Origin: a virus
Lineage: Duplodnaviria; Heunggongvirae; Uroviricota; Caudoviricetes
DNA: 64,000 bases
IMG/VR virus record: IMGVR_UViG_3300037400_001691
Coordinates: 1-64,000 of that record
Reading direction: 5' to 3' (one strand)
The position numbers and the translations under genes were made by a program. Shown piece after piece: positions 103-16,642 of this stretch. Each line of letters starts with the position of its first letter. The first letter of the stretch is position 1. The notes beneath the pieces are model-generated. The model saw only the letters and a list, made by a program, of their open reading frames with translations, searched no databases and was not told the DNA's origin.

Positions 103-447
103 TTGAAAGGTTCTATTATATTAGTTAGAGGTAATCACGATGAAATTCCTCTTGGTACATATGAATTTGCAAATAGTCTCGGTGCTAGATCTTTTGAAGT
201 ATATGATCAACTTATGTTTAATGTTGATGGTGTTGGAATGTTTGCATCACATTATCCAGCAACAGTATTTCCAGGTCTGTATCAAGTGTTTGGACATCTT
301 CATACATTAAAGGATGATACATCTTTCTTTATTAAAGGAAAGACAAGTGACGTACTTAAACCAACACAATATGACGTTGGTGTAGACCAAAATGATTTTC
401 GACCAATTTCATTTTGGGAACTTTGCAATATTTTTAAACAAAGATAA
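103..447 (+). CDS. metallophosphoesterase (calcineurin-like), C-terminal portion only; N-terminal motifs absent (window edge or frameshift)
   Basis: Translation contains motif III GNHDE and the GHLH motif. It has no ATG, and the ORF opens right after an in-frame TAA at 79-81. Confidence 0.45.
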   Translation: MKGSIILVRGNHDEIPLGTYEFANSLGARSFEVYDQLMFNVDGVGMFASHYPATVFPGLYQVFGHLHTLKDDTSFFIKGKTSDVLKPTQYDVGVDQNDFRPISFWELCNIFKQR

Positions 448-448
448 A

Positions 449-2146
449 ATGAAAAAACTCGAATCTCTTTATCCAACAAAGGCTCCTTCTACCAAAGATA
501 TGAACATCTTTGAGAAGGAGCTTTTTAAGAAGTCAGTACAAACTACTTCTGGTAATGGTAGTGTTAAGTATTCTATCAGCGGTAATGTCTTCTTAGATGA
601 CTATGCTGCAATTTCAAATTATCGTGAACCTAGAGAGTTAGACGATATTTTCTGTACTATGCAGAAACTTTGTAACGAGAATGTTCTTATTGCTCTTCGA
701 CTTACAGCATTTATAAGAATGATTACTCGTGCTCCATTCTTCAAAGATCAAACTCTTGGTGTTCATCGTGGTCAGGGTCTAAAGCATGAATACATTGGAA
801 GAATGTATTTCTTTGCTAAGAATTATCCAAAGATTTTCAAGCGTAACCTTGATGTATTTATCGCGATAGGTTCTTGGAATGATTTGTTTGAAATTCTCAG
901 AACAGATCTTTACTACAATGGTAAGAAGAGAAAGTCAAATTTCTTATTCAAAACTATTATTGATTATATCATTGCAAAAACATATGATAAGAATCAAGTA
1001 GAGTTGATTAAGAAGTATCTTCCACAAATTAAGCCTGCATCTAAGTGCTCAACTATTCGAAATCAGGCAAATAGTATTATCGCTAAGATAATTGCAACAC
1101 GTCTATTCCCTAGTGAGGATAAGAAGACAAGTTATGCAAGTTATCGTAGGTTTAAGAGTTCTGGTACAGCTCATATTTGGGAGCAAAAGATTTCTCAAGG
1201 TAAGTTCAATGAACTTGATTTTTCTCTCATTGCTGGTCGTGCACTTTCAAAACTCATAAACTCTAAGTTCCTAAAGAATCATGATCTTGAGGATGCTTAT
1301 TATGAGTGGATTGCTAAGCAGCCTGTAGCTAAGTTCACAGGATATCCATTTGAATTGTTTGCACCTTTTAATGAAGTGTACTTACAATACAATTATCTGC
1401 AAAACAGTAAGAATTTTAAACCTTATCAAATTGAAACATTAAATAAGCAATTTGAAGGTCTTATTGAAACTGCAAAGAAGGATATGAATCGTGAAACTTC
1501 ATTCATATGTTGTATTGATACTTCTGGTTCAATGACAGTACAAGCTAATGGTTTGAAAGTTTCTTCACTTACTGTTGCTCGTTCAATGGCTCTTTATTTT
1601 AGTAAACTCCTTATAGGTAAGTTTGCTAATACCTTCCTAGAGTTTGATAGACAGTGTAATTTCAATGTTTGGCAAGGACAAACTGCATATGAAAATTGGG
1701 TACAAACTCCAATCTCTGGATGGTGTAGAGATACTAATTTCATGAGTGTTGCAAACAAGTTTGTTGAACTCAAGCAGAAAGGATATGATGAATCTGAGTT
1801 TCCAACAGGAATAATTTGTATTTCAGATGGTGAATTTAATAGATATTCACATGATAAATCTGTATTTGAATCATTCTTGAATGCTCTTCGTCCTTGGTTC
1901 TCAAAAGAATTTGTTGATAATTTCAAACTTGTTCTTTGGGATTGTCCTAATGGTTGTTACGGTGAAGGAGTTAGACCTAAGTTCGAAAGTCTTGCTGATC
2001 GTCCAAACTTTTATTATATGTCTGGACTTGATCCTGCTGGAATTGCTTTCCTAACAGGTACTAAGTATTCACCTTCTATTCCTAAGACAGCTGAAGAACT
2101 CTTTGAAGCTGCTCTTGATCAAGAACTAATCAAAGCAATTAAGTAA
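449..2146 (+). CDS. vWA-domain protein, Ro60/TROVE-like (Rsr-like) candidate
   Basis: The protein is about 565 aa. A MIDAS-type motif (CC)IDTSGSM at about aa 360 is followed by vWA-like sequence, and size and domain order match Ro60 (toroid plus C-terminal vWA). The probable start is ATG 449, in frame directly after the upstream stop; the ORF track's 392 start overlaps the previous gene. Confidence 0.45.
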   Translation: MKKLESLYPTKAPSTKDMNIFEKELFKKSVQTTSGNGSVKYSISGNVFLDDYAAISNYREPRELDDIFCTMQKLCNENVLIALRLTAFIRMITRAPFFKDQTLGVHRGQGLKHEYIGRMYFFAKNYPKIFKRNLDVFIAIGSWNDLFEILRTDLYYNGKKRKSNFLFKTIIDYIIAKTYDKNQVELIKKYLPQIKPASKCSTIRNQANSIIAKIIATRLFPSEDKKTSYASYRRFKSSGTAHIWEQKISQGKFNELDFSLIAGRALSKLINSKFLKNHDLEDAYYEWIAKQPVAKFTGYPFELFAPFNEVYLQYNYLQNSKNFKPYQIETLNKQFEGLIETAKKDMNRETSFICCIDTSGSMTVQANGLKVSSLTVARSMALYFSKLLIGKFANTFLEFDRQCNFNVWQGQTAYENWVQTPISGWCRDTNFMSVANKFVELKQKGYDESEFPTGIICISDGEFNRYSHDKSVFESFLNALRPWFSKEFVDNFKLVLWDCPNGCYGEGVRPKFESLADRPNFYYMSGLDPAGIAFLTGTKYSPSIPKTAEELFEAALDQELIKAIK

Positions 2147-2557: not shown

Positions 2558-2643
2558 GGGTGGTTGGCCGAGTGGACGATGGCAATAAACTGTTAATCTA
2601 TCTAGTGAAAGCTACACCGTGGGTTCGAATCCCTCACTGCCCG
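2558..2643 (+). tRNA. atypical class-II-like tRNA (long variable arm, acceptor GGGTGGT/ACTGCCC with 2 G-U pairs); anticodon loop CTGTTAA reads GUU
   Basis: Hand fold: Ser-like D-arm GCC-GAGTGGACGAT-GGC, anticodon stem ATAAA/TCTAT (one A-C mismatch), variable hairpin TAG-TGAAAG-CTA, T-arm GTGGG-TTCGAAT-CCCTC. Confidence 0.4.
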
Positions 2644-2648
2644 CTAAT

Positions 2649-3016: not shown

Positions 3017-3769
3017 ATGAATACACTCGTTCATCATTTTGCAGGAATGAAATTAAGAGCACAACAATTTGTAAAATATTTTTACGATAATGTTGTTAAT
3101 GCTAAAATAAATTCAGATAATTTGACAGATTTTAATAATAATGTTACTTTAGTTTACGGATCAACAAATAATTATCCGTTTTCTCAAACATTACTTAAAT
3201 ATATAACTGAAAATAATATAAATTCTATAAATATATATGAGAATATTAATCAAGCTTTAAATATTGAGAAAATATCATATTTTAAAAAAGTTCTTGACGA
3301 AAAGTATGATTTATTAAACGATTATATATTATTTATAGATGCTGGAGATACAGTATTAAATATAGATATTTCTTTTAATGAAATTCTTGAAAGATTTAAA
3401 AGTTATAATTGTAATGTTTTATTTAATAAAGATATTACTGATTATCCTTTTAGTTTTAAAAAATATTTTAATCCGAAATCTCCAAGTTATATCAAAGAAT
3501 ATTTTGAAACTCCAAATGTTGAACAATTAAGTGATATAAAAAATGGACATTTTATAAATTCTGGTGTTTATTTTGGTAAAAAAGAAGACATTAAAGAATT
3601 AATAGATGTTTGTTTTAAAATTATAATAACTGATAACAATCCAAGATATTATTCTGATCAATTCATTTTTAAAAAGGCTGCAAAGTTTATTAATGAAAAA
3701 TATAATAAACATTTTGTAGAAGTTGATTATGAGAATAAATTATTTTCTTGTGTAAATTTTAATAAATGA
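3017..3769 (+). CDS. hypothetical protein, extremely AT-rich (possible nucleotide-sugar transferase-like, DAGD motif)
   Basis: 250-aa ORF with very low GC relative to its surroundings. No confident motif. Confidence 0.5.
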   Translation: MNTLVHHFAGMKLRAQQFVKYFYDNVVNAKINSDNLTDFNNNVTLVYGSTNNYPFSQTLLKYITENNINSINIYENINQALNIEKISYFKKVLDEKYDLLNDYILFIDAGDTVLNIDISFNEILERFKSYNCNVLFNKDITDYPFSFKKYFNPKSPSYIKEYFETPNVEQLSDIKNGHFINSGVYFGKKEDIKELIDVCFKIIITDNNPRYYSDQFIFKKAAKFINEKYNKHFVEVDYENKLFSCVNFNK

Positions 3770-4035
3770 AAAAATTACTAATTTTACTAATAATGATGCT
3801 TAGTATTGGTATATTCGGTAATGTAAATCATCAAGCAACTTATTCTGGAAAACACGTTGAAATATATAAAAAATCTAATAACAAGTTAATTTTTGAAACC
3901 GATTCAGCTAAAAAAGCTTATACCAATAAAGACACAATCATTGTAAAAATGATTAACGGAAAGATTAAAAAATATTATCCTGAAAGTGAATATATATTTA
4001 AGTATTCAATTTCAAGTGTAAGATATTACGAATGA
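3766..4035 (+). CDS. small secreted/lipoprotein-like protein
   Basis: N-terminal hydrophobic signal MKKLLILLIMMLSIGIFG. Start overlaps the previous stop (ATGA). Confidence 0.5.
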   Translation: MKKLLILLIMMLSIGIFGNVNHQATYSGKHVEIYKKSNNKLIFETDSAKKAYTNKDTIIVKMINGKIKKYYPESEYIFKYSISSVRYYE

Positions 4036-4055
4036 CATAGATACAACATATAAAA

Positions 4056-4144
4056 GGAATACATACAGCAAATGTTTTTGGTTAATAAATAATACTGATT
4101 ATATTGTTTTAAGTGGTTCAAATCCATTACTTTTTTGTATTCCG
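4056..4144 (+). ncRNA. IR-flanked structured element (GGAATACA...TGTATTCC) with ACAGCAA motif and a T-arm-like hairpin; degenerate Y-RNA/tRNA-like unit U1
   Basis: The 8-bp terminal inverted repeat encloses 73 nt that contain AGTGG-TTCAAAT-CCATT. No acceptor pairing was found. Confidence 0.35.
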
Positions 4145-4149
4145 AATTT

Positions 4150-4222
4150 GCATCGTTGGTGTTAGTGATTAGCATATTGGACTTCCACTCCAAAGGCGAG
4201 AGTTTGAATCTCTTACGATGCT
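4150..4222 (+). tRNA. tRNA-Gly(UCC)
   Basis: Acceptor GCATCGT/ACGATGC 7/7. Anticodon stem TTGGA/TCCAA with loop CTTCCAC. T-arm GAGAG-TTTGAAT-CTCTT. Confidence 0.65.
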
Positions 4223-4281
4223 CTCGAATCCCCATTAGTCCCTGAATTTTTAATTCAAACTAGTGGGTATTGTTATCTTAA

Positions 4282-4357
4282 GGAGGTATAGCGTAGGTGG
4301 TTGTTGCGCGTGGGTCTGAAAAACCCAAGGCTTGTGGTTCAACTCCCAATGCCTCCA
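4282..4357 (+). tRNA. tRNA-Phe(GAA)
   Basis: Acceptor GGAGGTA/TGCCTCC. D-arm GCGT...GCGC. Anticodon stem TGGGT/ACCCA with loop CTGAAAA. The T-stem is imperfect. Confidence 0.55.
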
Positions 4358-4380
4358 CTAATTTTTAAAATTATATTATT

Positions 4381-4563
4381 ATGAGTTTCGATAAAGCAAT
4401 AGAATCTGGTAAAGAACATCGTAAGCAATTTAAAGGAGCAAAGTCTGTTTCTTATAGTTGTAGAAATCATGGTGAATGTCCGTGGTGTAGAAGTAACAGA
4501 TTGTATGGTAATAGAAAAAGAGAAATAAGATCTTTAATGGAAATTAGAGATTTTCTGTCATAG
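4381..4563 (+). CDS. small Cys-rich zinc-ribbon protein (60 aa)
   Basis: Contains SCRNHGECPWCRSN. The ORF ends with TAG immediately followed by TAA. Confidence 0.5.
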   Translation: MSFDKAIESGKEHRKQFKGAKSVSYSCRNHGECPWCRSNRLYGNRKREIRSLMEIRDFLS

Positions 4564-4574
4564 TAAAGAATAAA

Positions 4575-4753
4575 GAAAGCGTACAGCAAATTTTTATATT
4601 TTACCATTAAATTTATAATCCGAAATGTTGTGCAATTCATATAAAAGACTGATTGAATTGTGTTTTATACTCGTATAGAAGTTAAGCTATACTAAGGTGT
4701 GAGTCACTGATTTAGAAGAATAAAAGTTAAATTAAACTTATATTTCGCTTTCT
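4575..4753 (+). ncRNA. IR-flanked structured element U2 (AGAAAGCG...CGCTTTCT) with ACAGCAAA motif, 179 nt, several internal hairpins
   Basis: The terminal 8-bp inverted repeat is preceded by the same leader motif as U1 and U3-U6. Internal hairpins include CAATTCA/TGAATTG and GTATAG/CTATAC. Confidence 0.35.
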
Positions 4754-4759
4754 GTAAAC

Positions 4760-4830
4760 AGGTCCTTAGTTTAACGGTAAAACATTAGTCTCCAAAACTA
4801 AAGTTATTGGTTCGATTCCATTAGGGTCTG
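4760..4830 (+). tRNA. tRNA-Trp(CCA)
   Basis: Acceptor AGGTCCT/AGGGTCT with 2 G-U pairs. D-arm GTTT-AACGGTA-AAAC. Anticodon stem TTAGT/ACTAA with loop CTCCAAA. T-loop TTCGATT. Confidence 0.6.
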
Positions 4831-5136
4831 CTAAAAAATGTTAAACTATTTTGTTTTCATAATAAAGATATGTATATTTGAAGTGTTAATTAGGAACACA
4901 TACAACAAAATTAATTCATTACTCTGCGTTTTAGAGTTCATTGTGTTCCGTTATTTTAATTATTGATTATGGCTTATAAAAAAGATACAAGACAAAGAGT
5001 AAAAGTACTCAATTGTGACATTCCTTATCTTAAAGGAATGGTTGGTCGAGTAGAAAAAGTAAATGGGGATATTTACAATGTAATGGTAGGACCGATTGTT
5101 ATAGCATTACATAAAAGTAAAATTCAAATATTAAAT

Positions 5137-5208
5137 TGAGGTATAGTATAACGGTTAGTACAGTAAACTGATAATTTACAAACCTAAGTTCAACTCTTAG
5201 TACTTCAA
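5137..5208 (+). tRNA. tRNA-Ile(GAU)
   Basis: Acceptor TGAGGTA/TACTTCA. D-arm GTAT-AACGGTTA-GTAC. Anticodon stem GTAAA/TTTAC with loop CTGATAA. T-arm CTAAG-TTCAACT-CTTAG. Confidence 0.6.
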
Positions 5209-5216
5209 CTAATATC

Positions 5217-5285
5217 GCGGATGCAGTGTGATGGTCGCATTTAAGGCTCATAACCTTAAGGAGTAGTTCGATTCTAACATTCGCA
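5217..5285 (+). tRNA. tRNA-Met-like (CAU) with truncated/imperfect T-stem (possible pseudo-tRNA)
   Basis: Acceptor GCGGATG/CATTCGC. Anticodon stem TAAGG/CCTTA with loop CTCATAA. The T-loop TTCGATT has only a 3-bp stem. Confidence 0.4.
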
Positions 5286-5306
5286 ACTTATCTTCATGTT
5301 TTTTAA

Positions 5307-5421
5307 AGGAAACTTCAGCAAACAATTCTCCCACAGAATGTCGTTAGTTCGAATCTAACTCCCTCTGATAGAGGGATAGCTCAATTGGTTCAGAGCGTCT
5401 GTTTTATAAAAAATGTTTCCT
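5307..5421 (+). ncRNA. permuted tRNA-like element U3 (Y-RNA/YrlA-like): 3' tRNA half then 5' tRNA half, enclosed by IR AGGAAAC/GTTTCCT
   Basis: At 5333-5367 lie ACAGA-ATGTC-GTTAG-TTCGAAT-CTAAC-TCCCTCT-G. After the linker AT, 5370-5402 hold AGAGGGA-TA-GCTC-AATTGGTTCA-GAGC-G-TCTGT. The acceptor pairs 7/7 and the anticodon stem 5/5 between the halves. The leader contains CAGCAAA. Confidence 0.6.
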
Positions 5422-5427
5422 GTTTAA

Positions 5428-5545
5428 AGAAAACTAACAGCAATATTTAAATCCGTATCCTGGTGGTAACATGGGTTCGATTCCCTTCTCTACTGTAACA
5501 GGTAGTGTCGTCTAGTGGTAGGACGCCTTTTTTGAATAGTTTTCT
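5428..5545 (+). ncRNA. permuted tRNA-like element U4 (Y-RNA/YrlA-like), IR AGAAAACTA/TAGTTTTCT
   Basis: Leader ACAGCAA, then T-arm ATGGG-TTCGATT-CCCTT, then an acceptor-like hairpin CTCTACTG-TAA-CAGGTAG, then a Glu-like D-arm TCGTCTAGTGGTAGGAC. The inverted-repeat arms show compensatory changes relative to U5 and U6. Confidence 0.55.
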
Positions 5546-5552
5546 GTAATAT

Positions 5553-5636
5553 CGCGGTATAGTCTAATGGTAAGATGCGAGGCTCATAACCTTGAGACAG
5601 TAAATGCTTGTGTGGGTTCGATTCCCACTACCGCAA
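5553..5636 (+). tRNA. atypical tRNA, anticodon CAU, C1-A72 mismatch, 17-nt variable region
   Basis: Acceptor CGCGGTA/TACCGCA. D-arm GTCT-AATGGTA-AGAT. Anticodon stem CGAGG/CCTTG with loop CTCATAA. T-arm GTGGG-TTCGATT-CCCAC. Confidence 0.45.
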
Positions 5637-5725
5637 GGACACATAATCAAAACCTCCACGTGGTGTGTCTGGGTAATGCTAATTTGATTATAATTTGTTT
5701 AATTTAATTTATTTAGAATTGAATC

Positions 5726-6376
5726 ATGGCTTATATTTATTGTATTACAAATTTAATTAATGGAAAATAGTATGTAGGTAAAACTACATATTCTATTACA
5801 AAAAGATTTAAAGAACATTGCAGAGATTGTTCAAAAGAATGTGAAGAAAAAAGACCTTTATATGCTGCTATGAATAAATACGGTATAGAAAATTTTGTTG
5901 CAAAAGAACTTATAGAATGTGAAATAGATGAACTTAGTTCTTATGAAATTATGTTTATAGAAAAACTTCAAACATATGGAAAAAATGGATATAATGCAAC
6001 AAAAGGAGGTGATGGTTCTATATTATTTGATTATAATGAAATAGTTAATTTATATAAACAAGGAAAATCTATGACAGAAGTAGCTAGTATAATACATTGT
6101 TGTATTGATACTGTTTCTAAAGTAGTTCATTTATATAATTTACCTATAAATAAAATTATATCAGGTAGTTGTAAACAACCAAAAATTGTAATACAATTAA
6201 ATAAAGAAACAAAAGAAGAAATACAAATTTTTAATTCAGTTGCAGACGCTTCTCATTGGTTAGTTGATAATGGATATGCTAAAACATATAACGGAGGTGT
6301 TAGACAAAAAATTTGTAATTGTTGTAATGGAAAATCAAAATCAGCTTATAATTTTAAATGGAAATATAAGGAATAA
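5726..6376 (+). CDS. GIY-YIG homing endonuclease (free-standing) with one in-frame TAG
   Basis: Translation MAYIYCITNLINGK*YVGKTTYSITKRFKEHCRD...AAMNKYGIENF... carries the GIY-YIG motif with a TAG at 5768-5770. The ORF is otherwise intact through to TAA at 6374-6376. Confidence 0.7.
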
Positions 6377-6394
6377 TTCCCACTACCGCAATAT

Positions 6395-6466
6395 GGGGCA
6401 TTAGTGTAGAGGTCAGCACGTCAGATTTTCATTCTGGAGACTCGAGTTCGAATCTCGGATGCCCTA
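6395..6466 (+). tRNA. tRNA-Glu(UUC)
   Basis: Acceptor GGGGCAT/ATGCCCT. D-arm GTGT-AGAGGTCA-GCAC. Anticodon stem TCAGA/TCTGG with loop TTTTCAT. T-arm TCGAG-TTCGAAT-CTCGG. Confidence 0.6.
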
Positions 6467-6588
6467 CAAAGGTTCTTGCTTTTTCATCCTATAACGAAAA
6501 AGCCGTAGCAATTCGTCAATGCCGTAGGAATCCGTTAACTCCAATAAACTAGTTTGTGTAACTACACTCTTTGAGTGCAGTTCTTTTT

Positions 6589-6659
6589 GAGTGCTTGTCC
6601 GAGCGGTTAGGTAACGCTCTGTAAAAGCGAATACATTGGTTCAAATCCAATAGCACTCT
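6589..6659 (+). tRNA. tRNA-Tyr(GUA), short class-I form
   Basis: Acceptor GAGTGCT/AGCACTC 7/7. Anticodon stem CGCT/AGCG with loop CTGTAAA. T-arm ATTGG-TTCAAAT-CCAAT. Confidence 0.5.
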
Positions 6660-6805
6660 CAACCTCAGCTGACAAGAGCTAGATCTTGTTGACTTTTAAA
6701 TTCCGGGGCAACATGAAACGGAATAGGTTGGCTTACCTTAAAAAAGTACACGCATCAAAGATGTAAGAGATCCTACTCAGTGAGGTTTTAGAGTAGGATT
6801 TACTT

Positions 6806-6888
6806 GCCGGAATGGGACAGCGGTCGACTCCACTTGATTTGTAATCATGCTCTGAAAAGACACGTCGGTTCGAATCCGACTTCCGGCT
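6806..6888 (+). tRNA. class-II-like tRNA (83 nt, long variable arm), anticodon loop TTTGTAA reads UGU
   Basis: Acceptor GCCGGAA/TTCCGGC 7/7. D-stem GGA/TCC with an 11-nt loop. Anticodon stem CTTGA/TCATG with one mismatch. Variable hairpin. T-arm GTCGG-TTCGAAT-CCGAC. Confidence 0.45.
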
Positions 6889-6909
6889 CAAACAATTAAT
6901 TTTAATAGT

Positions 6910-7458
6910 ATGGTAGATAATAACAAAATCATTCATTTGTTTATTACAAACAAATGTACACATAATTGTAAAAATTATTGTAATAAACAGTATGACATTG
7001 ACAAAATTTCTGTAATTACTGTAGATGAATTAAAATATGCAGATACAGTTTTACTAACAGGTGGTGAACCATTTATGTTAGTTGATTATCTTGAGGATTT
7101 TGCTAAGATGTTAAAGCATGGTTTCACAAATATTAAACAACTTTATGTTTATACTTATGGAGATTCTCTTTATAAATATTTACAGAAGGGTAAAACACTT
7201 GATGTATTTGATGGAGTAAATATAGCTCCTAAAAATAAATATGATGCAGAATGTACTAATAGCATTCTTAAATATAGAAAAGATGATATACTTTCTTTAG
7301 CATCAAGTCGTTTATATATCTTCCCAGAAATGAACGATTATATTCCTACTTACGATTTATATGGATATAGTAATTTTGAAGTTATTCATAGAAAATGGCA
7401 AGAGGAATTTGTACCAGATTCTGGAATATTTAGAAGACTTCCTATTTTATTTGAATAA
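6910..7458 (+). CDS. radical-SAM-like protein (CX3CX3C variant plus GGEP motif)
   Basis: Contains NKCTHNCKNYC and LLTGGEPF. Confidence 0.45.
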   Translation: MVDNNKIIHLFITNKCTHNCKNYCNKQYDIDKISVITVDELKYADTVLLTGGEPFMLVDYLEDFAKMLKHGFTNIKQLYVYTYGDSLYKYLQKGKTLDVFDGVNIAPKNKYDAECTNSILKYRKDDILSLASSRLYIFPEMNDYIPTYDLYGYSNFEVIHRKWQEEFVPDSGIFRRLPILFE

Positions 7459-7553
7459 GTGTTCATATTTGTATAATTAAAGGTTACATATAGCAAACTT
7501 ATTATCAGCAACAAACTTGTAATTTGTCACGCTTTACCTTGTAACCTGTATTT

Positions 7554-7626
7554 GTGACCTTAGCTCAGATGGTAGAGCTACGGATTTTTAATCCATCGGG
7601 CATGGGTTCAAGTCCCATAGGTCACA
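7554..7626 (+). tRNA. tRNA-Lys(UUU)
   Basis: Acceptor GTGACCT/AGGTCAC 7/7. D-arm GCTC-AGATGGTA-GAGC. Anticodon loop TTTTTAA. T-arm ATGGG-TTCAAGT-CCCAT. Confidence 0.65.
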
Positions 7627-7644
7627 CATTAAAACTATTAAAAT

Positions 7645-8685
7645 ATGAGTGAAAAGAATTGGACGTGTAAATATGCACATCATGGAAGACGTAATGGTGA
7701 AGGATTCCCACGTCATGCACTAAAGGATTTTGATGGTACTCATATTAGTATGGGTATGTTACGTTCTTATAAATCCAAATATTCTTGGGATTATCGAAAT
7801 TATCCAGCAATTACAAATAAGTATATTGTAGGTTTATTAGATAAATATGTTGGTAAATCTTATGATGATTTTAAACTTGCTTTTGATCAAAGGACTAAAA
7901 ATCTTTATAAGAAATATCCTATAGAATGGGGTAAGATTTCTGATTACTTACTTGATAAGCCACAAGAATATTATCGTCGTATTACATTTTATCTTGACAA
8001 AAACAATATAATTAGAAGATGCAAGAAATTAAAATATAGAACTTGGAAACTTCCAACTCTTAGTAAAACTCAAAAACATTTTAATGAAAGAGTTAAACTT
8101 CCAGAATGGGGACAAGTAAGAACTGATTCTCGATTTGACGTTGATCATGATTCTTTTTCTACTATGCCTGATAAGTTTAAAGAACCTTTATTACTTGGAA
8201 CATTTTATGTTATTGTAAATGATAAGATTTGTAAACTTCCTGTTTATACTTGTAATAAAGAAATATTTAAAACATATTCAACTTATCGTGATGAAAAATG
8301 GGATAGTAAAAAGAGACGTTATATTAAAACTCCATTTTGGAAATCAGATGCTTGGAATTGTAAACTTATAAATCCTGCTAAAAGAAAGAAAATAGCAGAA
8401 CAATGGATTCCTGTTGATGTTTACACATTACCAAAATTAAAACATGATTTTTGGTGTGAAGCTAAACATAAAGACAGATATAATCTGGAAGAACGTATTG
8501 AAAATCTTAATAATAAAATCAATATAACATTAAATTTTGATATTAGATTGGAATTAATTGGTGATAGAAATAAATTAATTCACCAACTTAATGAACTTCC
8601 AGAAACTGCTTGTTACAATCTTGGATATGGTCGATATTATCCATTTGTAAAAGTATCTGATTACGAAAAGTTTTGTAAAAAATAA
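7645..8685 (+). CDS. hypothetical protein (346 aa)
   Basis: Long ORF with no recognisable motif. Confidence 0.6.
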   Translation: MSEKNWTCKYAHHGRRNGEGFPRHALKDFDGTHISMGMLRSYKSKYSWDYRNYPAITNKYIVGLLDKYVGKSYDDFKLAFDQRTKNLYKKYPIEWGKISDYLLDKPQEYYRRITFYLDKNNIIRRCKKLKYRTWKLPTLSKTQKHFNERVKLPEWGQVRTDSRFDVDHDSFSTMPDKFKEPLLLGTFYVIVNDKICKLPVYTCNKEIFKTYSTYRDEKWDSKKRRYIKTPFWKSDAWNCKLINPAKRKKIAEQWIPVDVYTLPKLKHDFWCEAKHKDRYNLEERIENLNNKINITLNFDIRLELIGDRNKLIHQLNELPETACYNLGYGRYYPFVKVSDYEKFCKK

Positions 8686-8699
8686 TTTTAAGTGTTTAA

Positions 8700-8816
8700 A
8701 GAATACTAACAGCAACTTAATTAGCACTTGTAATGCCGTGTCGGAGGTTCGATTCCTCCTCTTACTTTTAATTGAGAAAGATAGTTTAGTGGCAAAACAC
8801 GTAATTATAGTATTCT
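8700..8816 (+). ncRNA. permuted tRNA-like element U5 (Y-RNA/YrlA-like), IR AGAATACTA/TAGTATTCT
   Basis: After the IR comes the ACAGCAAC bulge, then a second helix TTAATTA/TAATTA. The T-arm is GGAGG-TTCGATT-CCTCC. The 3' acceptor-like strand TCTTACT pairs 6/7 with the downstream AGAAAGA. A D-arm GTTT-AGTGGCA-AAAC follows. Confidence 0.55.
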
Positions 8817-8835
8817 GTTTTTAAAATTAATAAAA

Positions 8836-9030
8836 ATGAAAAAAGTAATTTTTTGGATTATTGTGAAAAATTGTATTATAGTTGTACTTGTTGCAATTAT
8901 TATTGGTTTAATGGTATATTATAATCATATGCGTGAGGAATATCAAAAGAAAGAAAATACATTAATAATGATGTATAATTCTAAATGTAATCACGCTCAA
9001 ATTGATTACAAACTATTAAGAAGTTATTAA
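8836..9030 (+). CDS. small membrane protein (1 TM)
   Basis: Hydrophobic segment IIVVLVAIIIGLMVYY. Confidence 0.45.
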   Translation: MKKVIFWIIVKNCIIVVLVAIIIGLMVYYNHMREEYQKKENTLIMMYNSKCNHAQIDYKLLRSY

Positions 9031-9032
9031 TA

Positions 9033-9206
9033 TGAAAAGTAATTTTGACGGATTATTAGCAATGATTATAATTGCTACAGCTTGTGTTTTAGTTACAATG
9101 AGTATTTTTTATAATAATATTGAGCAACGTATCGAAACACTTCAACAACAAAATGATTCTCTTAAACAAGAAATTGTTTTATTAAATAATTATTTATATG
9201 ATTAAA
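9033..9206 (+). CDS. small membrane/coiled-coil protein (57 aa)
   Basis: ORF MKSNFDGLLAMIIIATACVLVTMSIFYNN... with an ATG start. Confidence 0.4.
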
Positions 9207-9407
9207 TATGTTAAACCTGAAATACAATTAATAATATCAGATTCTGAAGATTTGATGATTAGTTCACAAGAACATTTACCAGATATTCAATCTGATGTTC
9301 ACGAATGTTGTCCTGCTTGTGATCCAAATGGTTATTGGCATTGCGATCATTCTAGAGCATGGGGTAACAAAGGATCACAATATGGAAAATGTGATAGATG
9401 TAATTAA
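9198..9407 (+). CDS. small Cys/His-rich protein
   Basis: Contains CCPACDPNGYWHCDH...CDRCN. Confidence 0.45.
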   Translation: MIKYVKPEIQLIISDSEDLMISSQEHLPDIQSDVHECCPACDPNGYWHCDHSRAWGNKGSQYGKCDRCN

Positions 9408-9411
9408 CATG

Positions 9412-9485
9412 GTGTCGTTAACTTAATTGGCTAAAGGCGGTGACTGTGAATCACTGAGATATCGGTTCGAATCCGTTGCGATACT
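9412..9485 (+). tRNA. tRNA-His(GUG)
   Basis: Acceptor GTGTCGT/GCGATAC with 2 G-U pairs, and a G at -1. Anticodon stem GGTGA/TCACT with loop CTGTGAA. T-loop TTCGAAT. Confidence 0.55.
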
Positions 9486-9503
9486 ACATCATATGTATTG
9501 TAA

Positions 9504-9643
9504 AGAATACTAACAGCAAAATTATTTAAAAACTGTTTTCTCCGTTGTGCGAAAGGCGCGTATAGGTTCGAATCCTATCATTAGGTAATTACTCCTAATG
9601 TGGTGGAATTGGTAGACACGATGGATTGTTTTAATAGTATTCT
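9504..9643 (+). ncRNA. permuted tRNA-like element U6 (Y-RNA/YrlA-like), IR AGAATACTA/TAGTATTCT
   Basis: Leader ACAGCAAA and a second helix TTTAAAAAC/GTTTTAA. T-arm TATAGG-TTCGAAT-CCTATC. Acceptor-like hairpin ATTAGG-TAATTACT-CCTAAT. D-arm GTG-GAATTGGTAGA-CAC. Confidence 0.55.
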
Positions 9644-9798
9644 GTTTTTGGAGGGTTGACAGAGTGATTTATTGCACCAGACTACTAATCTGGCAGTCGT
9701 CATTTTACAGGTTTACTTTGGCCATTTTTAGTAGTTATATTCCTACTTTGGCTTTGGGGTAAGTTTTGTACAAAAATTTCTAAAAAGATTTTGAAACA

Positions 9799-12394: not shown

Positions 12395-12954
12395 AATTTG
12401 GGGGTATTTGGATTTGATTGCTAAGAGAAGCAAAGAAATCACGCAAAGGCAGTTGGAAAGACAACAAATAAAATTTAAACGGAAATAACACAGTTACATT
12501 CCGTATCGCTGCTTAATTGAATTAGATTAAGTACGATACCCGGGAAACACAGGATACTTACCGAGGAACAGAAATAGTATTCATCGCTGGCATCGGCAGT
12601 AATTAAACGAGCAAAAGTTTTATTAGTTTTCACAAAACTAATTGGTGGAGCTAACATTCAGTTAGCCTAAAGAAGAAAACTTTTAAAAATTGAAAAGCGT
12701 GTACAAATTTCGATGATATTTTAGTAAGACGAGGGTTTAATAGTTGGACCAGCTATAAAGTGATTTATAGTTAAAAACATCGGATGAATTCAGGGAACGC
12801 TAAAAAATAAAGCTCAAGATAAGCTTTATTTCATGCTAATCCTGAGCTAAACATAGAGTACACTCTATGAAAGTGCAACGACTATTGGAGAACTACAGTG
12901 TTCTTAATTACCAACTTGAGCGTCCGACATCTCATTAAGAGATGATGATATAGT

Positions 12955-13518
12955 CTAATCTTCTATGAAAGTAGAAGTATAGGAAGAAATCTGTTTTAAA
13001 AATTTTTTAGTTTCTAAATCAGACATTTGTTGTTTCATTAAATTAATAGGAGTTGATACAAATTGAACATTACCTTTTATGTAACCTTTAGATGAATCAA
13101 TTCTATCTAAAGATGCTCGATAAATTATATTTAAATCATTTATATTATTATCTTCTGGTAATGTTAATTTAAGATTAGTATAAGGACATATTCCATTTTG
13201 TTGTTCCCATATTAATTTTAAATATTCTAAATCTATATTTATTTCTTTAGATCTACGTTTTATACATCTCATTGTATATCTAAAAGGACTAAATTCATCT
13301 CTTCTATTTCCAGAATGTTGTGAAATATCATATTTATCATTTGATAATGATAAATTTTTATTAGATTTTCCAGAACAAATTCTAGAACAATAATTTTTTC
13401 TTCCTAATTTAACATTTCTATTATATTCGGAAAGTGGTTTTTGAAATTCTTTACCACAACAATCACAAATTAATGTGATTAATTTTCGATTTTTACAATA
13501 ATCTTTTAAAATTTCCAT
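12955..13518 (-). CDS. HNH homing endonuclease (Zn-finger N-terminus, SLDRIDSSKGYIKGNVQFV HNH motif)
   Basis: Minus-strand ORF of 187 aa with CxxC pairs and the HNH signature. Confidence 0.65.
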   Translation of the reverse strand: MEILKDYCKNRKLITLICDCCGKEFQKPLSEYNRNVKLGRKNYCSRICSGKSNKNLSLSNDKYDISQHSGNRRDEFSPFRYTMRCIKRRSKEINIDLEYLKLIWEQQNGICPYTNLKLTLPEDNNINDLNIIYRASLDRIDSSKGYIKGNVQFVSTPINLMKQQMSDLETKKFLKQISSYTSTFIED

Positions 13519-15292: not shown

Positions 15293-15638
15293 ATTAATAT
15301 TAAATAATGTTTCATATATAGTTGAAGTAGCTAGTGATACAGATGAAGGTTGTGCTAGATGTGCTCTTCGTAATTTAAATGGAGGATGTTGTTCACCTTG
15401 TGAAGTTTTTGATCATCATGGGAAAGGATTAACTGAAGGTAATTGTTATTTCATAGAAGAGACTGAAGAAACAGAAAAAGCAAAAGAAGCAATAGTTAAT
15501 AAGAAAGCAGAAGTTGCTAAGAAATTATATGATGTTCTCGATCCTTTAGAAAGTTGTTTTGATGAGTGTCCTTTAAATGAAATTTGTGGATCTCCAAATA
15601 CAATTTGTGATACATTAAAAGACACAGCTAAATATTAA
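15285..15638 (+). CDS. hypothetical Cys-rich protein (117 aa)
   Basis: Contains CARCALRNLNGGCCSPCEV. Confidence 0.5.
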   Translation: MNKLILNNVSYIVEVASDTDEGCARCALRNLNGGCCSPCEVFDHHGKGLTEGNCYFIEETEETEKAKEAIVNKKAEVAKKLYDVLDPLESCFDECPLNEICGSPNTICDTLKDTAKY

Positions 15639-15649
15639 ATATATAAACT

Positions 15650-16642
15650 ATGTTCAGAAAATATTCTCATATTCAAAATTCTTATCAAACTTCATATATT
15701 GAAAGAGTAAGAGAGTGGACAAATAAAGACACAAAATTTGTCGCACAAGAAAAAGTTGATGGAACTAATTTTCAATTCTTTATAAATCGTAATAAAGAAT
15801 CTAAAGAATTTGAAATTAATTGTGGTAAGCGTTCATCAGAAATTGCTCCTAATGAAAGTTTCTTTAATTATAAAGAACTTCTTGCTCAAATGACTCCTAA
15901 ACTTGAAGATCTTTATGACATAATGAGTTATTATCATTATGATATAAGTAAAGGTATCATTGTTTATGGAGAATATTTTGGTAAAGGTATTCAGTCAAGA
16001 ATATTTTATACAGAAAATCAAGATTTTTATGGATTTGATATTTATCTTCCATCTATAGGAGAAATTATAAATCCTATTGAAGTTATGGATTTATTTGATA
16101 GTGCTAAAATATTTCATGCTGAAAATCTTCATATTGGAACTCTTGATGAAATGCTTGCACTTGATGTAACATTTTTATCAACAATTCCAGAGCGTTTAGG
16201 TTATAAAAATCCTGAAAACAATTATGCTGAAGGATATGTTATTAAACCTGTAGATGCTCCTTATTTTGCTCCAAATGGAGATAGAATTATTATTAAACAT
16301 AAGAATTCTAAATTCATTGAAATTGGACAACATAAGAAAGAAAAGAAAGTAATTGAGCCAGGTAATCCTCTTAAGTATAGAGAACTTCTTGATGCTGTAA
16401 ATAATTATTTTACAGTAGCTCGTCTTGAGAATTGTAAATCACATCTTGGTGATATAGAACTTCCAAATGATTTTGGTAAGTTACTTAAGGAACTTTGTTG
16501 TGATGTACTTAATGAGTTCTTAGAAGATGAAAATTATAAAGCAATTTATAATTCATTAGAAAAGAACGATCAAAAGATGCTTAAGACTGAAATTAATAAG
16601 AAGTCAGTGGCTCTTATTAAAGAAACTTACATGAATGGATAA
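15650..16642 (+). CDS. rnlB: RNA ligase 2 (T4 Rnl2-like, ATP-dependent)
   Basis: The N-terminus MFRKYSHIQNSYQTSYIE...FVAQEKVDGTNFQFFI matches T4 Rnl2 MFKKYSSLENHYNSKFIE...WVAREKIHGTNFSLII, including the KxDGxN lysine-adenylation motif. Downstream, VYGEYFGKGIQ and IIKHKNSKF also match, and the size is 330 aa. Confidence 0.85.
   Translation: MFRKYSHIQNSYQTSYIERVREWTNKDTKFVAQEKVDGTNFQFFINRNKESKEFEINCGKRSSEIAPNESFFNYKELLAQMTPKLEDLYDIMSYYHYDISKGIIVYGEYFGKGIQSRIFYTENQDFYGFDIYLPSIGEIINPIEVMDLFDSAKIFHAENLHIGTLDEMLALDVTFLSTIPERLGYKNPENNYAEGYVIKPVDAPYFAPNGDRIIIKHKNSKFIEIGQHKKEKKVIEPGNPLKYRELLDAVNNYFTVARLENCKSHLGDIELPNDFGKLLKELCCDVLNEFLEDENYKAIYNSLEKNDQKMLKTEINKKSVALIKETYMNG

Follow-up and report, generated by a model that had tools for sequence, protein, structure and literature searches.

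The stretch of phage DNA considered here (64,000 nt, termed the window) contains a unit, U3, in which the 3′ half of a tRNA lies upstream of its cognate 5′ half. Does this arrangement represent a circularly permuted tRNA gene, or does it encode an RNA that mimics a tRNA and does not decode? Both possibilities had been raised in a sequence-only reading, which leaned toward a Y RNA-like mimic with a closed acceptor hairpin. That preference is supported by a match to the YrlA model, a nearby gene with a Ro60 fold, six sibling units and a covarying family. U3 is best explained as a non-coding Y RNA of the YrlA type, and we put the probability of this at roughly 0.75. Ro60 and its Y RNAs make up a conserved particle for RNA surveillance, and little is understood of what it does in bacteria and viruses.

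Fold of U3 and its likeness to YrlA

The two tRNA halves (5333–5367 and 5370–5402) agree base for base with the sequence-only assignment, and the sequence parse gives Watson–Crick pairing throughout, with 7/7 pairs in the acceptor, 5/5 in the anticodon stem and 7/7 in the outer repeat. The elements follow the order P1 5′ strand, T arm, closed acceptor-like stem-loop, D arm and P1 3′ strand (Table 1). Rejoined in the usual order, the halves are recognised as a tRNA by ARAGORN at essentially every junction tried, and thus the U3 body has all of a tRNA except a defined anticodon loop; the junction 5409/5333 gives tRNA-Ile(tat). The body is similar to Val/Ala tRNAs of related phages, and the termini consist of a plain 7-bp helix and the CAGCAA internal loop. 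The minimum free energy fold (−28.4 kcal/mol, vs. −26.8 for the permuted cloverleaf) has a local hairpin, ATTCT (5325–5329)/AGAAT (5335–5339), in place of the 5-bp anticodon stem, and with three orthologs only, covariation does not separate these two pairings. An Rfam tRNA match at 5370–5495 (27.8 bits) was rejected as chimeric: it joins the 5′ half of U3 to the 3′ half of U4, and acceptor pairs are mismatched.

Table 1. Positions of U3, its parts, the sibling units and associated genes in the window
Feature	Position	Strand	Basis and remarks
Ro60-like protein gene (DUF2828/DUF7788 family), proposed partner	392–2146	+	True start maybe ~19 codons downstream of 392
U1	4056–4143	+	CAGCAA handle and T-arm-like hairpin only; R1 23.1 bits; ends 6 nt before tRNA-Gly (4150)
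U2	4574–4753	+	Long; stem AGAAAGCG/CGCTTTCT; ACAGCAA; without tRNA-like core; ends 6 nt before tRNA-Trp (4760)
Short unit	4893–4949	+	Variant motif ACAACAA; stem GGAACACA/TGTGTTCC; R1 24.9 bits, E 0.0026, handle only matched
tRNA-Met(CAT) gene	5217–5285	+	ARAGORN; Rfam tRNA 36.7 bits; 21 nt upstream of U3
U3, complete Y RNA-like unit with circularly permuted tRNA-like core (YrlA topology)	5307–5421	+	Sequence, Rfam YrlA, model R1
U3 P1 closing stem, 5′ strand AGGAAAC	5307–5313	+	Pairs 7/7 with 5415–5421
U3 TT, between P1 5′ strand and CAGCAA		+	Sequence parse
U3 CAGCAA motif	5316–5321	+	Internal loop just 3′ of P1; proposed Ro60-like protein contact site
U3 ACAATTCTCCC, between CAGCAA and ACAGA		+	Sequence parse
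U3 anticodon-stem-like 3′ strand ACAGA	5333–5337	+	Pairs 5/5 with TCTGT 5398–5402
U3 variable loop ATGTC and T arm GTTAG-TTCGAAT-CTAAC	5338–5359	+	T arm 5343–5359
U3 closed acceptor-like hairpin TCCCTCT-GAT-AGAGGGA	5360–5376	+	7 bp, 3-nt loop; strands 5360–5366 and 5370–5376
U3 U8-A9 (TA), D arm GCTC-AATTGGTTCA-GAGC, G26, TCTGT	5377–5402	+	D arm 5379–5396; TCTGT 5398–5402
U3 TTTATAAAAAAT, between TCTGT and GTTTCCT		+	Sequence parse
U3 P1 3′ strand GTTTCCT, then conserved G	5415–5422	+	Sequence
U4, tRNA-like	5428–5545	+	Stem AGAAAACTA/TAGTTTTCT; ACAGCAA; T arm, hairpin CTACTG-TAA-CAGGTAG, Glu/Asp-like D arm; R1 87.1 bits (filters off), seed member; ends 6 nt before tRNA-Met (5552)
tRNA-Met(CAT) gene	5552–5637	+	ARAGORN and Rfam; immediately after U4
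U5, tRNA-like	8700–8816	+	Stem AGAATACTA/TAGTATTCT; V hairpin GCA-CTTGTAA-TGC, T arm, acceptor-like hairpin, D arm; R1 89.1 bits, seed member
U6, tRNA-like	9504–9643	+	Class II (Leu-like) D arm, long variable arm; R1 53.4 bits, E 3e-10; outside seed
Rnl2-type RNA ligase gene (‘rnlB’)	15650–16642	+	Pfam RNA_ligase E 3.9e-20, T4_Rnl2_C E 1.7e-14

YrlA RNAs (Rfam RF02553) are found in Salmonella, Mycobacterium smegmatis and mycobacteriophages; they are defined by the order T arm, closed acceptor-like stem and D arm inside a terminal stem, carry a 5′ motif, GNCGAAN0-1G, presumed to touch Ro60, are bound by Ro60 in vivo and bear tRNA modifications such as pseudouridine 55 and dihydrouridine (Chen et al., 2014; PMC4201824). 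Over model positions 1–114, closing stem included, U3 (5306–5425) matches the Rfam YrlA model with 38.8 bits (E 2.4e-7 when 281 nt were searched and 4.9e-6 when 5.7 kb were), a score to which generic T- and D-arm features contribute much, and which is below the Rfam gathering threshold of 69, such that a window scan at this threshold does not report U3. An E-value scan of 3990–9700 matched the other units to no Rfam family, and the short units are therefore absent from Rfam 15.

The likeness to YrlA extends to several properties. The two ends of U3 pair as a terminal stem, whose 5′ strand is followed by a short, conserved, unpaired motif and then, with the V hairpin being optional, by a T arm, a closed acceptor-like stem-loop and a D arm that keep the residues of tRNA tertiary interactions. 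There are several such RNAs per locus, and the 7-bp acceptor stem is also found in the M. smegmatis RNA. YrlA is encoded next to a Ro60 ortholog; the Ro60-fold gene on the strand of U3 lies nearby, but 3.2 kb away and not adjacent. Unlike YrlA, in addition to the sub-threshold score, U3 lacks GNCGAAN0-1G and has TTCAGCAA at that place ((A)CAGCAA in the family); it retains a full 5-bp remnant of the anticodon stem; the presumed partner is a DUF2828/DUF7788 protein outside Pfam TROVE; and there are seven or more units per genome, as against two, interleaved with tRNA genes and often 7–9 nt upstream of them.

Two other systems invite comparison. The Ro60-bound Y RNA Yrn1 of Deinococcus radiodurans has a tRNA-like module with an orientation opposite to that of U3, in that a stem-loop lies between the D and T arms at the position of the anticodon arm. 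An unpermuted topology is seen in some units of the present family as well (e.g. 15416–15532 of related locus L029). The Thermus phage phiLo encodes Yrl1 and Yrl2 with phiRo60. Its protein is a canonical TROVE member, its motif is CGAA and its two RNAs lie upstream of the gene, all of which sets phiLo apart from the window; the paper reports no arrays inside a tRNA cluster and does not employ the name YrlA (PMC12135203).

A Ro60-like gene and a family of related units

The putative partner gene is on the same strand as U3 and 3.2 kb upstream; the nearest unit in the window is 1.9 kb from the gene. The Ro60 fold of its product is seen by Foldseek, with moderate TM-scores (0.4–0.5). At the sequence level, Pfam finds DUF7788 only and no TROVE domain, phmmer finds no match among PDB sequences, and a profile built from 40 sequences gets to human Ro60 at no better than E 0.09, with the match at the co-linear start of the vWA domain. 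The search returned more than 1,300 homologs, mostly in phages of 100–200 kb, and DUF2828 is also present in cultured Klebsiella, Fusobacterium, cyanobacterial and Felix-O1-like phages, where the proteins of CHB7 and mistaenkt (both Felix-O1-like) have 24% identity to that of the window.

Including U3, the window has seven + strand units with a common plan, i.e. an A, a stem of 7–9 bp, N-ACAGCAA, an interior, the second stem strand and a G. A stem scan gave 14 matches vs. 1.2 expected in shuffled sequence. Neither 4000–8000 nor 5286–5552 has DNA similarity to any of 50,697 deposited phage genomes, and the context of the units was taken from protein-anchored loci. Scans for signals are uninformative: 53 promoter-like sites were found in this AT-rich DNA vs. 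49 expected, and most terminator-like matches are tRNA arms or tRNA-like arms. GIY-YIG, HNH and LAGLIDADG endonuclease genes are abundant in the region, which also has one group I intron. Two other candidate features were rejected. TAG recoding was considered because two homing-endonuclease reading frames have an in-frame TAG, but most long reading frames have none and the standard code fits; a CUA anticodon could not be supplied by U3. A split tRNA at 2509–2545/2960–2997 is not confirmed by ARAGORN in intron mode.

Base pairing in the tRNA-like subclass was followed with a covariance model, R1, which has 141 full-length matches (109 distinct) at E ≤ 1e-5, all on the gene strand and present in 67 of 87 sources. 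U3, itself in the R1 seed, scores 88.9 bits. Among the 109 distinct sequences the T stem is 98.5% paired, with covariation at 4/5 pairs; the acceptor-like helix is 95.7% paired and both sides change at 7/7 pairs; and the D stem is 96.5% paired. P1 is 98% paired with changes on both sides at 7/7 pairs, a figure that is partly circular since a perfect stem was a requirement when the units were first gathered, with CAGCAA as the anchor. The anticodon-like helix is the weakest at 70%, its inner two pairs being at ~90% and the outer three at ~55%. Each position of CAGCAA (family consensus ACAGCAA) is 94–100% conserved, as are the T-loop residues G, TTC, A, T and C (96–100%), U8, G10, A14, G18 and A21 (91–99%), the A on the 5′ side of P1 (99%) and the G immediately 3′ of it (98%). 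An unfitted MAFFT alignment of 29 sequences has 91.7% of pairs formed vs. 63% when shuffled and ~44% when slid, and both sides change at 26/28 pairs.

A census of 88 related loci and the window (1.68 Mb, all with a homolog of the Ro60-like protein) found 553 stem-plus-CAGCAA units on the gene strand vs. 28 on the other. The first kilobase after the gene holds 103 of them, and in 38 of 85 loci the first unit is within 150 nt of the gene. By comparison, 13 tRNA-bearing viral loci without the gene have four units in 105 kb, counting both strands. The association of gene and units persists at 22–40% protein identity in cultured phages, i.e. across very distant relatives: Klebsiella phage KP2025 has units as well as the gene, the coliphage mistaenkt has a cluster of four CAGCAA units, one of them tRNA-like (L105, 8702–9980), and the Leptolyngbya phage Lbo-JY46 has five tandem units right after the gene.

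Could the units instead be cis-acting 5′ leaders or spacers of phage tRNA precursors, independent of the Ro60-like protein? They might, for instance, steer RNase P/RNase E processing or set its timing, or shield the precursor, and the tRNA-like cores would then be incidental captures of tRNA pieces. The tight spacing fits such a role without any Ro60-like protein, in that 211 of the 553 units end 7–9 nt before a tRNA start and 135 start 13–30 nt downstream of a tRNA. The A ahead of P1 and the G behind it, both conserved, could mark processing sites, and many units are mere hairpins of 55–70 nt with AT-rich interiors. However, U3 precedes U4 and not a tRNA, ~60% of units do not lie immediately before a tRNA, and no tRNA lies between the five units of Lbo-JY46. 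It should also be kept in mind that units track the gene over great protein distance, that their density in the gene-less loci is at background, and that the tRNA-like core is under strong structural selection. A leader role that does without the protein is thus improbable, although a leader function is compatible with protein binding and does not exclude it.

The case for a permuted tRNA gene

Circularly permuted tRNA genes are present in Cyanidioschyzon merolae, some green algae and Thermofilum. They yield functional tRNAs with conserved anticodons by way of a bulge-helix-bulge motif, a splicing endonuclease, which is archaeal/eukaryotic in the known cases, and a circular intermediate. U3 resembles these genes in its upstream 3′ half, its complementary acceptor strands and the short sequence intervening at the acceptor junction. 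A decoding product might be tRNA-Ile(UAU), with TTTATAA as the anticodon loop: both linkers would be cut and the RNA circularised or ligated to form the loop, e.g. by the Rnl2-type ligase, and the acceptor junction would be opened by RNase P and a 3′ nuclease. This route has attractive points. The halves make a complete, Val/Ala-like tRNA with full acceptor and anticodon stems and canonical T and D loops, which ARAGORN accepts when rejoined; TTTATAA looks like an anticodon loop, with U33 and a purine at 37; and Ile(UAU) is missing from the window's tRNA set. The ligase gene pointed out in the sequence-only reading is real, as judged by Pfam, but has no demonstrated link to U3.

Comparison of orthologs speaks against decoding. 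There are three (window, L104 and L004), 87–93% identical, of which L104 was the one extra ortholog found by a metagenome scan with GAATGTCGTTAGTTCGAATCTAAC. The acceptor hairpin is 7/7 in all three with different sequences, TCCCTCT/AGAGGGA in the window, TTCCTCT/AGAGGAA in L104 and TCTCTCC/GGAGAGA in L004, and thus the pairing in U3 is more than chance. While the acceptor covaries in this way, the would-be anticodon loops, TTTATAAAAAAT, TTTGAAAAAT and TTTATAGAAAA (beginning TTTATAA, TTTGAAA and TTTATAG), differ by indels and read TAT, TGA and TAT; the anticodon is not conserved. L004 has only 4/5 pairs in the anticodon stem owing to TCTGC, which gives a C-A mismatch, and the weakness of this helix in the wider family has been described above. 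U4 likewise has orthologs in L004 (9696–9811) and in L104.

The ends of U3 are also unlike those of a permuted gene. They are locked in a conserved, protein-handle-like stem, and the motif in the 5′ linker is common to U1, U2 and the unit at 4893–4949, siblings without a tRNA-like core. No bulge-helix-bulge-type motif is evident at the U3 ends. Pfam/PHROG scans of neighbouring ORFs, which covered part of the ORFs in the window, revealed no splicing endonuclease homolog and no RtcB, PNPase or CCA-adding enzyme. Taken together, a genuine permuted tRNA gene is very unlikely, and its maturation with the help of rnlB is not supported.

It was also considered whether U3 consists of parts of two neighbouring tRNA genes, and this was rejected, as the missing halves are on neither flank. 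In IMG/VR, an exact-pattern search with the U3 T arm and TAGCTCA after it gave 13 loci, all of them ordinary adjacent tRNA pairs. That U3 is a functionless, decayed by-product of tandem tRNA duplication/deletion or of rearrangement by homing endonucleases would suit the endonuclease-rich, intron-bearing region and the T-arm-then-D-arm order that adjacent tRNAs naturally yield, but is strongly disfavoured by the cognate nature of the halves, the flanks, the compensatory changes that hold the acceptor at 7/7 in orthologs with no neutral decay, the retention of all helices in 109 distinct relatives and the strand bias.

Possible function and significance

As a Y RNA, U3 would have its 5′ and 3′ ends paired as P1 (AGGAAAC/GTTTCCT), with the CAGCAA internal loop adjoining, and the short anticodon-stem-like helix would carry a tRNA elbow made up of the variable loop, T arm, closed 7-bp acceptor helix and D arm. 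In known Y RNAs, Ro60 docks on the GNCGAA/GGUCCGA stem, and by analogy P1 and CAGCAA may be the docking site for the Ro60-like DUF2828 protein. The tRNA-shaped module might act as a stable handle, or as a decoy for factors that recognise tRNAs.

U3 is probably co-transcribed with the neighbouring tRNAs and U4, and may be freed by the tRNA-processing machinery. An RNase P cut at a downstream tRNA would leave a short single-stranded 3′ tail on units, and at tRNA-Met 5552 such a cut would fix the 3′ end of U4. The acceptor helix has 7 perfect base pairs, and for this reason U3 may also be nicked by RNase P at the 5369/5370 junction, a cut that M. smegmatis YrlA undergoes. The cellular role could be in RNA quality control or decay together with a host exonuclease, or in counter-defence.

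Counter-defence is brought to mind by phage Bas63. We take Bas63 to be Felix-O1-like, as are CHB7 and mistaenkt, and on this ground its gp130 is presumably a member of the same DUF2828 family. In independent work, gp130 is described as structurally Ro60-like, is encoded directly upstream of tRNA genes and counters the Ppl defence; the authors only speculated that some of the ‘tRNAs’ might be Y RNAs, and their work tested the protein and does not describe an RNA family, motif or structure (PhageMaP preprint, PMC11482910).

More tentatively, the units as a whole could constitute an abundant, previously undescribed class of phage Y RNAs for the DUF2828 branch, in which 5′ leaders of tRNA operons load the Ro60-like ring and U3-like members serve as decoys or adaptors. 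Loading might be by the precursor, or by a released leader with its RNase P-generated 3′ tail. The tRNA classes mimicked would be Val/Ala-like, Glu/Asp-like and Leu-like, the targets being host tRNA-directed enzymes or defence nucleases, and the anti-Ppl activity of gp130 could be linked to an RNA cofactor. We regard this extension as possible and well short of probable.

The protein partner, the motif, the multiplicity of units and their fixed spacing to downstream tRNA genes all go beyond what the sequence-only reading had proposed. For annotation, elements with a stem plus CAGCAA should not be named tRNAs, pseudo-tRNAs or permuted tRNA genes. Escherichia coli offers a tractable system, as mistaenkt has the units and, for Bas63, of the same group, a counter-defence phenotype is reported for a Ro60-like protein. 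If the Y RNA interpretation is correct, tRNA mimicry by circular permutation would be common in phage tRNA clusters, as the R1 matches suggest (141 copies, 67/87 sources), and the large DUF2828 family of ‘unknown function’ would gain a candidate RNA partner with a defined recognition element.

The permuted unit U3 and its likeness to YrlA

The window is a phage-like region with 18 tRNA genes, all on the plus strand between 2558 and 14714, and it also contains a group I intron and several homing-endonuclease genes. In the unit U3 (5307–5421, +), a tRNA 3′ half precedes its 5′ half, with only the dinucleotide AT between them. Pairing is complete in the acceptor (7/7), the anticodon stem (5/5) and the outer closing stem, P1 (7/7). 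The sequence, the permuted halves and their pairing are exactly as the sequence-only reading had described them.

A permissive Rfam scan of 5280–5560 gave one strong match, YrlA (RF02553, Y RNA-like), which aligns full length (model positions 1–114) to 5306–5425. The score of 38.8 bits (E 2.4e-7; E 4.9e-6 in a 5.7-kb scan) does not reach the curated 69-bit threshold, and the match is therefore taken as a lead, not as proof of membership. What defines YrlA RNAs is that their two ends pair in a stem, within which T arm, closed acceptor-like stem-loop and D arm follow in that order; bacteria and phages encode them beside a Ro60 ortholog (PMC4201824). The permuted order in U3 is exactly alike, whereas the U3 family has CAGCAA at the place of the GNCGAA of YrlA. 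We consider U3 to be a tRNA mimic of Y RNA (YrlA) type, with a probability of roughly three in four. A mimic was also the interpretation preferred from the sequence, and it holds in view of the YrlA match, the Ro60-fold gene, the sibling units and the covarying family that accompanies this gene in other phages. Chen et al. consider the 7-bp acceptor to be the determinant for in vivo RNase P cleavage of Mycobacterium smegmatis YrlA, with CCA added afterwards (PMC4201824). The acceptor helix of U3 is a perfect 7 bp, and therefore U3 is predicted to occur in a nicked form of two pieces.

The more exotic proposal was that U3 is a genuine, functional permuted tRNA gene. When its halves are put back in conventional order, ARAGORN calls a tRNA at any junction chosen, and the U3 body most resembles Val/Ala tRNAs. 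Three orthologs nevertheless make this proposal highly improbable: those of the window, of viral locus L004 (87% identical over the unit) and of locus L104 (region 93% identical to the window). In all three, pairing of the acceptor hairpin is 7/7 through differing sequences (TCCCTCT/AGAGGGA, TCTCTCC/GGAGAGA and TTCCTCT/AGAGGAA, respectively), and the hairpin is thus selected as a helix. The 3′ linker, the would-be source of the anticodon loop, differs in length (TTTATAAAAAAT in the window, TTTATAGAAAA in L004 and TTTGAAAAAT in L104); the would-be anticodons are TAT, TAT and TGA, and the anticodon stem of L004 contains a mismatch. The family-wide CAGCAA motif sits in the 5′ linker of U3, this handle is common to units without a tRNA core, and no element of the family is less conserved than the anticodon-like helix. 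The predicted minimum-energy fold of U3 keeps the P1, T, acceptor and D helices but replaces the anticodon stem by a local hairpin (−28.4 vs −26.8 kcal/mol with the anticodon stem; z-score −2.4). The Rnl2-type RNA ligase gene to which the sequence-only reading pointed is real (15650–16642), but nothing links it to U3.

It should be pointed out that 5370–5495 (+) matches the Rfam tRNA model at 27.8 bits, just below the threshold of 29. This match was rejected as chimeric: it joins the 5′ half of U3 to the 3′ half of the neighbouring unit U4, and its acceptor pairs are mismatched. Pipelines could annotate it as a pseudo-tRNA or an intron-containing tRNA.

Sibling units and conservation of the fold

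Comparison of loci having close homologs of the Ro60-like protein reveals a repeated architecture: A, a stem of 7–9 bp, one or two bases, (A)CAGCAA, a variable interior, the complementary strand and G. Scanning for CAGCAA after a 7-mer with its exact reverse complement 40–300 nt downstream gave 14 stem hits on the plus strand of the window, with 1.2 expected in shuffles, and picked out U1 to U6, U3 included. T arm, hairpin and D arm are present in U3, U4, U5 and U6, and U4 follows U3 after 6 nt.

Features of the window
Feature	Position	Strand	Remarks
Ro60-like ORF	392-2146	+	584 aa; 3.2 kb upstream of U3, same strand as U3
tRNA 5′-half-like segment	2509-2545	+	GGGTTCA-TA-GTTC-AATGGTTA-GAAC
'tRNA-Asn(GTT)'	2558-2644	+	unusually long, 87 nt; class II-like D arm, long variable arm
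tRNA 3′-half-like segment	2960-2997	+	…CAGTTCGATTCTG…TGGGCCC; ~420 nt downstream of 2509-2545
U1	4056-4143	+	unit scan; T-arm-like hairpin only
U2	4574-4753	+	unit scan; no tRNA feature
Seventh unit	4893-4949	+	covariance model; variant motif ACAACAA
U3 closing stem (P1)	5307-5313 / 5415-5421	+	AGGAAAC / GTTTCCT; encloses whole unit
U3 3′ half	5333-5367	+	ACAGA-ATGTC-GTTAG-TTCGAAT-CTAAC-TCCCTCT-G
U3 5′ half	5370-5402	+	AGAGGGA-TA-GCTC-AATTGGTTCA-GAGC-G-TCTGT
U4	5428-5545	+	unit scan; T arm, hairpin, Glu/Asp-like D arm
tRNA-Met(CAT)	5552-5637	+	unusually long, 86 nt; extended variable region
U5	8700-8816	+	unit scan; T arm, hairpin, D arm
U6	9504-9643	+	unit scan; T arm, hairpin, D arm; class II (Leu-like) tRNA imitation
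Group I intron	12728-12977	+	96.1 bits
187-aa ORF	12955-13518	opposite	overlaps 3′ end of group I intron; no Pfam match

A MAFFT alignment of 29 units, fitted to no structure, agrees with a five-helix model at 91.7% paired, vs 63% in column shuffles and ~44% with slid partners; both sides change at 26 of 28 pairs. The covariance model made from it, R1, yields 141 full-length matches (E ≤ 1e-5) in 1.66 Mb, from 67 of 87 sources and all on the gene strand. Among 109 distinct sequences, pairing is 98.2% in P1, 98.5% in the T arm, 95.7% in the acceptor-like hairpin, 96.5% in the D arm and 70.3% in the anticodon-like helix (inner two pairs ~90), figures that lean toward the structure because the alignment is model-fitted and P1 is a selection criterion. 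Cleaner evidence comes from the unfitted alignment and from the asymmetry between strands. Conserved unpaired positions in the 109 sequences are the A before P1 (99%), CAGCAA (94–100%) and the G after P1 (98%); others are T-loop residues, U8, A14, G18 and A21.

Many tRNA-like units have a small hairpin 5′ of the T arm (e.g. at 8724–8738 of the window, and in locus L016, 18184–18302). Its conserved 7-nt loop, CTTGTAA, is followed by CCGT and has an anticodon-loop shape reading TGT; U3 lacks this hairpin. Other CAGCAA units contain an unpermuted module of D arm, short anticodon-arm-like hairpin and T arm (L029 15416–15532, L017 18107–18224, L020 13271–13390 and others similar), which is the topology of Deinococcus Yrn1. 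Both topologies coexist within one phage lineage.

Co-occurrence with a Ro60-fold protein gene

The sole Pfam match of the Ro60-like ORF is DUF7788, its homologs have DUF2828 and DUF7788, and it matches PHROG 850, "RNA-binding protein" (E 6e-31). Its product has the Ro60 fold, yet without recognisable TROVE-family membership, because the ten best Foldseek PDB matches of its AlphaFold2 model (40 homologs; pLDDT 83, pTM 0.81) are all Ro60/Rsr, full length, whereas the Ro60 link is invisible to sequence search from the ORF and its profile reaches human Ro60 only marginally (E 0.09), co-linear at the start of the vWA domain.

With 80 further viral loci fetched by protein homology, the set comprises 88 loci and the window (1.68 Mb). 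It contains 553 units on the gene strand vs 28 on the opposite strand; 103 are within the first kilobase after the Ro60-like gene, and 38 of 85 loci have their first unit ≤150 nt from it. In thirteen viral loci that bear tRNAs but lack the gene, units are at the background rate, with four in 105 kb on both strands together. Units stay with the gene even in evolutionarily very distant phages. Five tandem units stand directly 3′ of it in Leptolyngbya phage Lbo-JY46 (40% protein identity). There are four in Klebsiella phage KP2025 (24%) and four in the Felix-O1-like coliphage mistaenkt (24%), in each case with one that is tRNA-like; that of mistaenkt scores 50.3 bits with R1 (E 9e-10). Units also accompany tRNAs, 211 of the 553 ending 7–9 nt ahead of an ARAGORN tRNA start; in the window these are U1 (tRNA-Gly), U2 (tRNA-Trp) and U4 (tRNA-Met).

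A strongly conserved unit of ~90–105 nt directly follows the gene in most IMG/VR loci (e.g. L002 1834–1924, L005 11752–11855 and L007 11767–11859), in many with the stem GATTAGG/CCTAATC; its core is not obviously tRNA-like. Small ORFs occupy this position in the window (ORF 2150–2419) and in L004. In L004, the closest relative of the window, a calcineurin-like phosphoesterase gene (Pfam Metallophos, 3704–4291) ends one base before the start of the Ro60-like gene, which suggests an operon. The window starts inside the region matching this gene, and its partial ORF there (103–447) has no Pfam match.

The tRNA region and possible roles of the units

The HDV-like ribozyme family HDV-F-prausnitzii matches weakly at 5636–5691 (+; E 0.23; 24.5 bits against a gathering score of 44), from the last base of tRNA-Met onward. 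HDV-type ribozymes cut at their own 5′ end, and so this putative ribozyme could in principle set the tRNA 3′ end. In-frame TAG codons at conserved positions are seen in a GIY-YIG homing-endonuclease ORF (5727–6376, +; …NGK*YVGKT…) and an HNH-like ORF (~2650–2950, +; …FGVSS*GY…); most long ORFs of the window have none. The search of the window for tRNAs gave none with a CUA anticodon; related phages do have one (L005 2608–2681; 'tRNA-Sup-CTA' of KP2025). The odd Asn tRNA gene is also present in L004 (6679–6765). Together with the HNH-like ORF, it occupies the gap between the two tRNA half-like segments, which ARAGORN in intron mode does not join.

Mimicry of tRNA by Y RNAs, phage examples included, has been known since 2014 (PMC4201824), and in 2024 a protein resembling Ro60 was noted next to the tRNA cluster of a phage (PMC11482910). 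A CAGCAA RNA family, YrlA having GNCGAA there, seems undescribed in the literature searched and is absent from Rfam 15. The same is true of the partnership with the DUF2828 branch, the multiplicity of units and their placement as tRNA leaders.

The analysis establishes the fold of the units, its conservation and its occurrence together with a Ro60-fold protein gene. By analogy with Ro60/Y RNA and YrlA, the Ro60-like protein would bind P1 and CAGCAA, and the unit may be excised from a polycistronic tRNA precursor. RNase P acting at the next tRNA would leave a short 3′ tail, of the kind threaded by Ro60 rings, and the tRNA-shaped module might stabilize the RNA or engage tRNA-binding factors. Relevant to a role in counter-defence, Bas63 gp130 is structurally Ro60-like and counters Ppl; the authors of that study only speculated on Y RNAs among annotated tRNAs (PMC11482910). 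Perhaps the units function in tethering a host exonuclease, for which the RYPER complex and the phiLo Ro60-Yrl-PNPase complex are precedents (PMC12135203), or in counter-defence.
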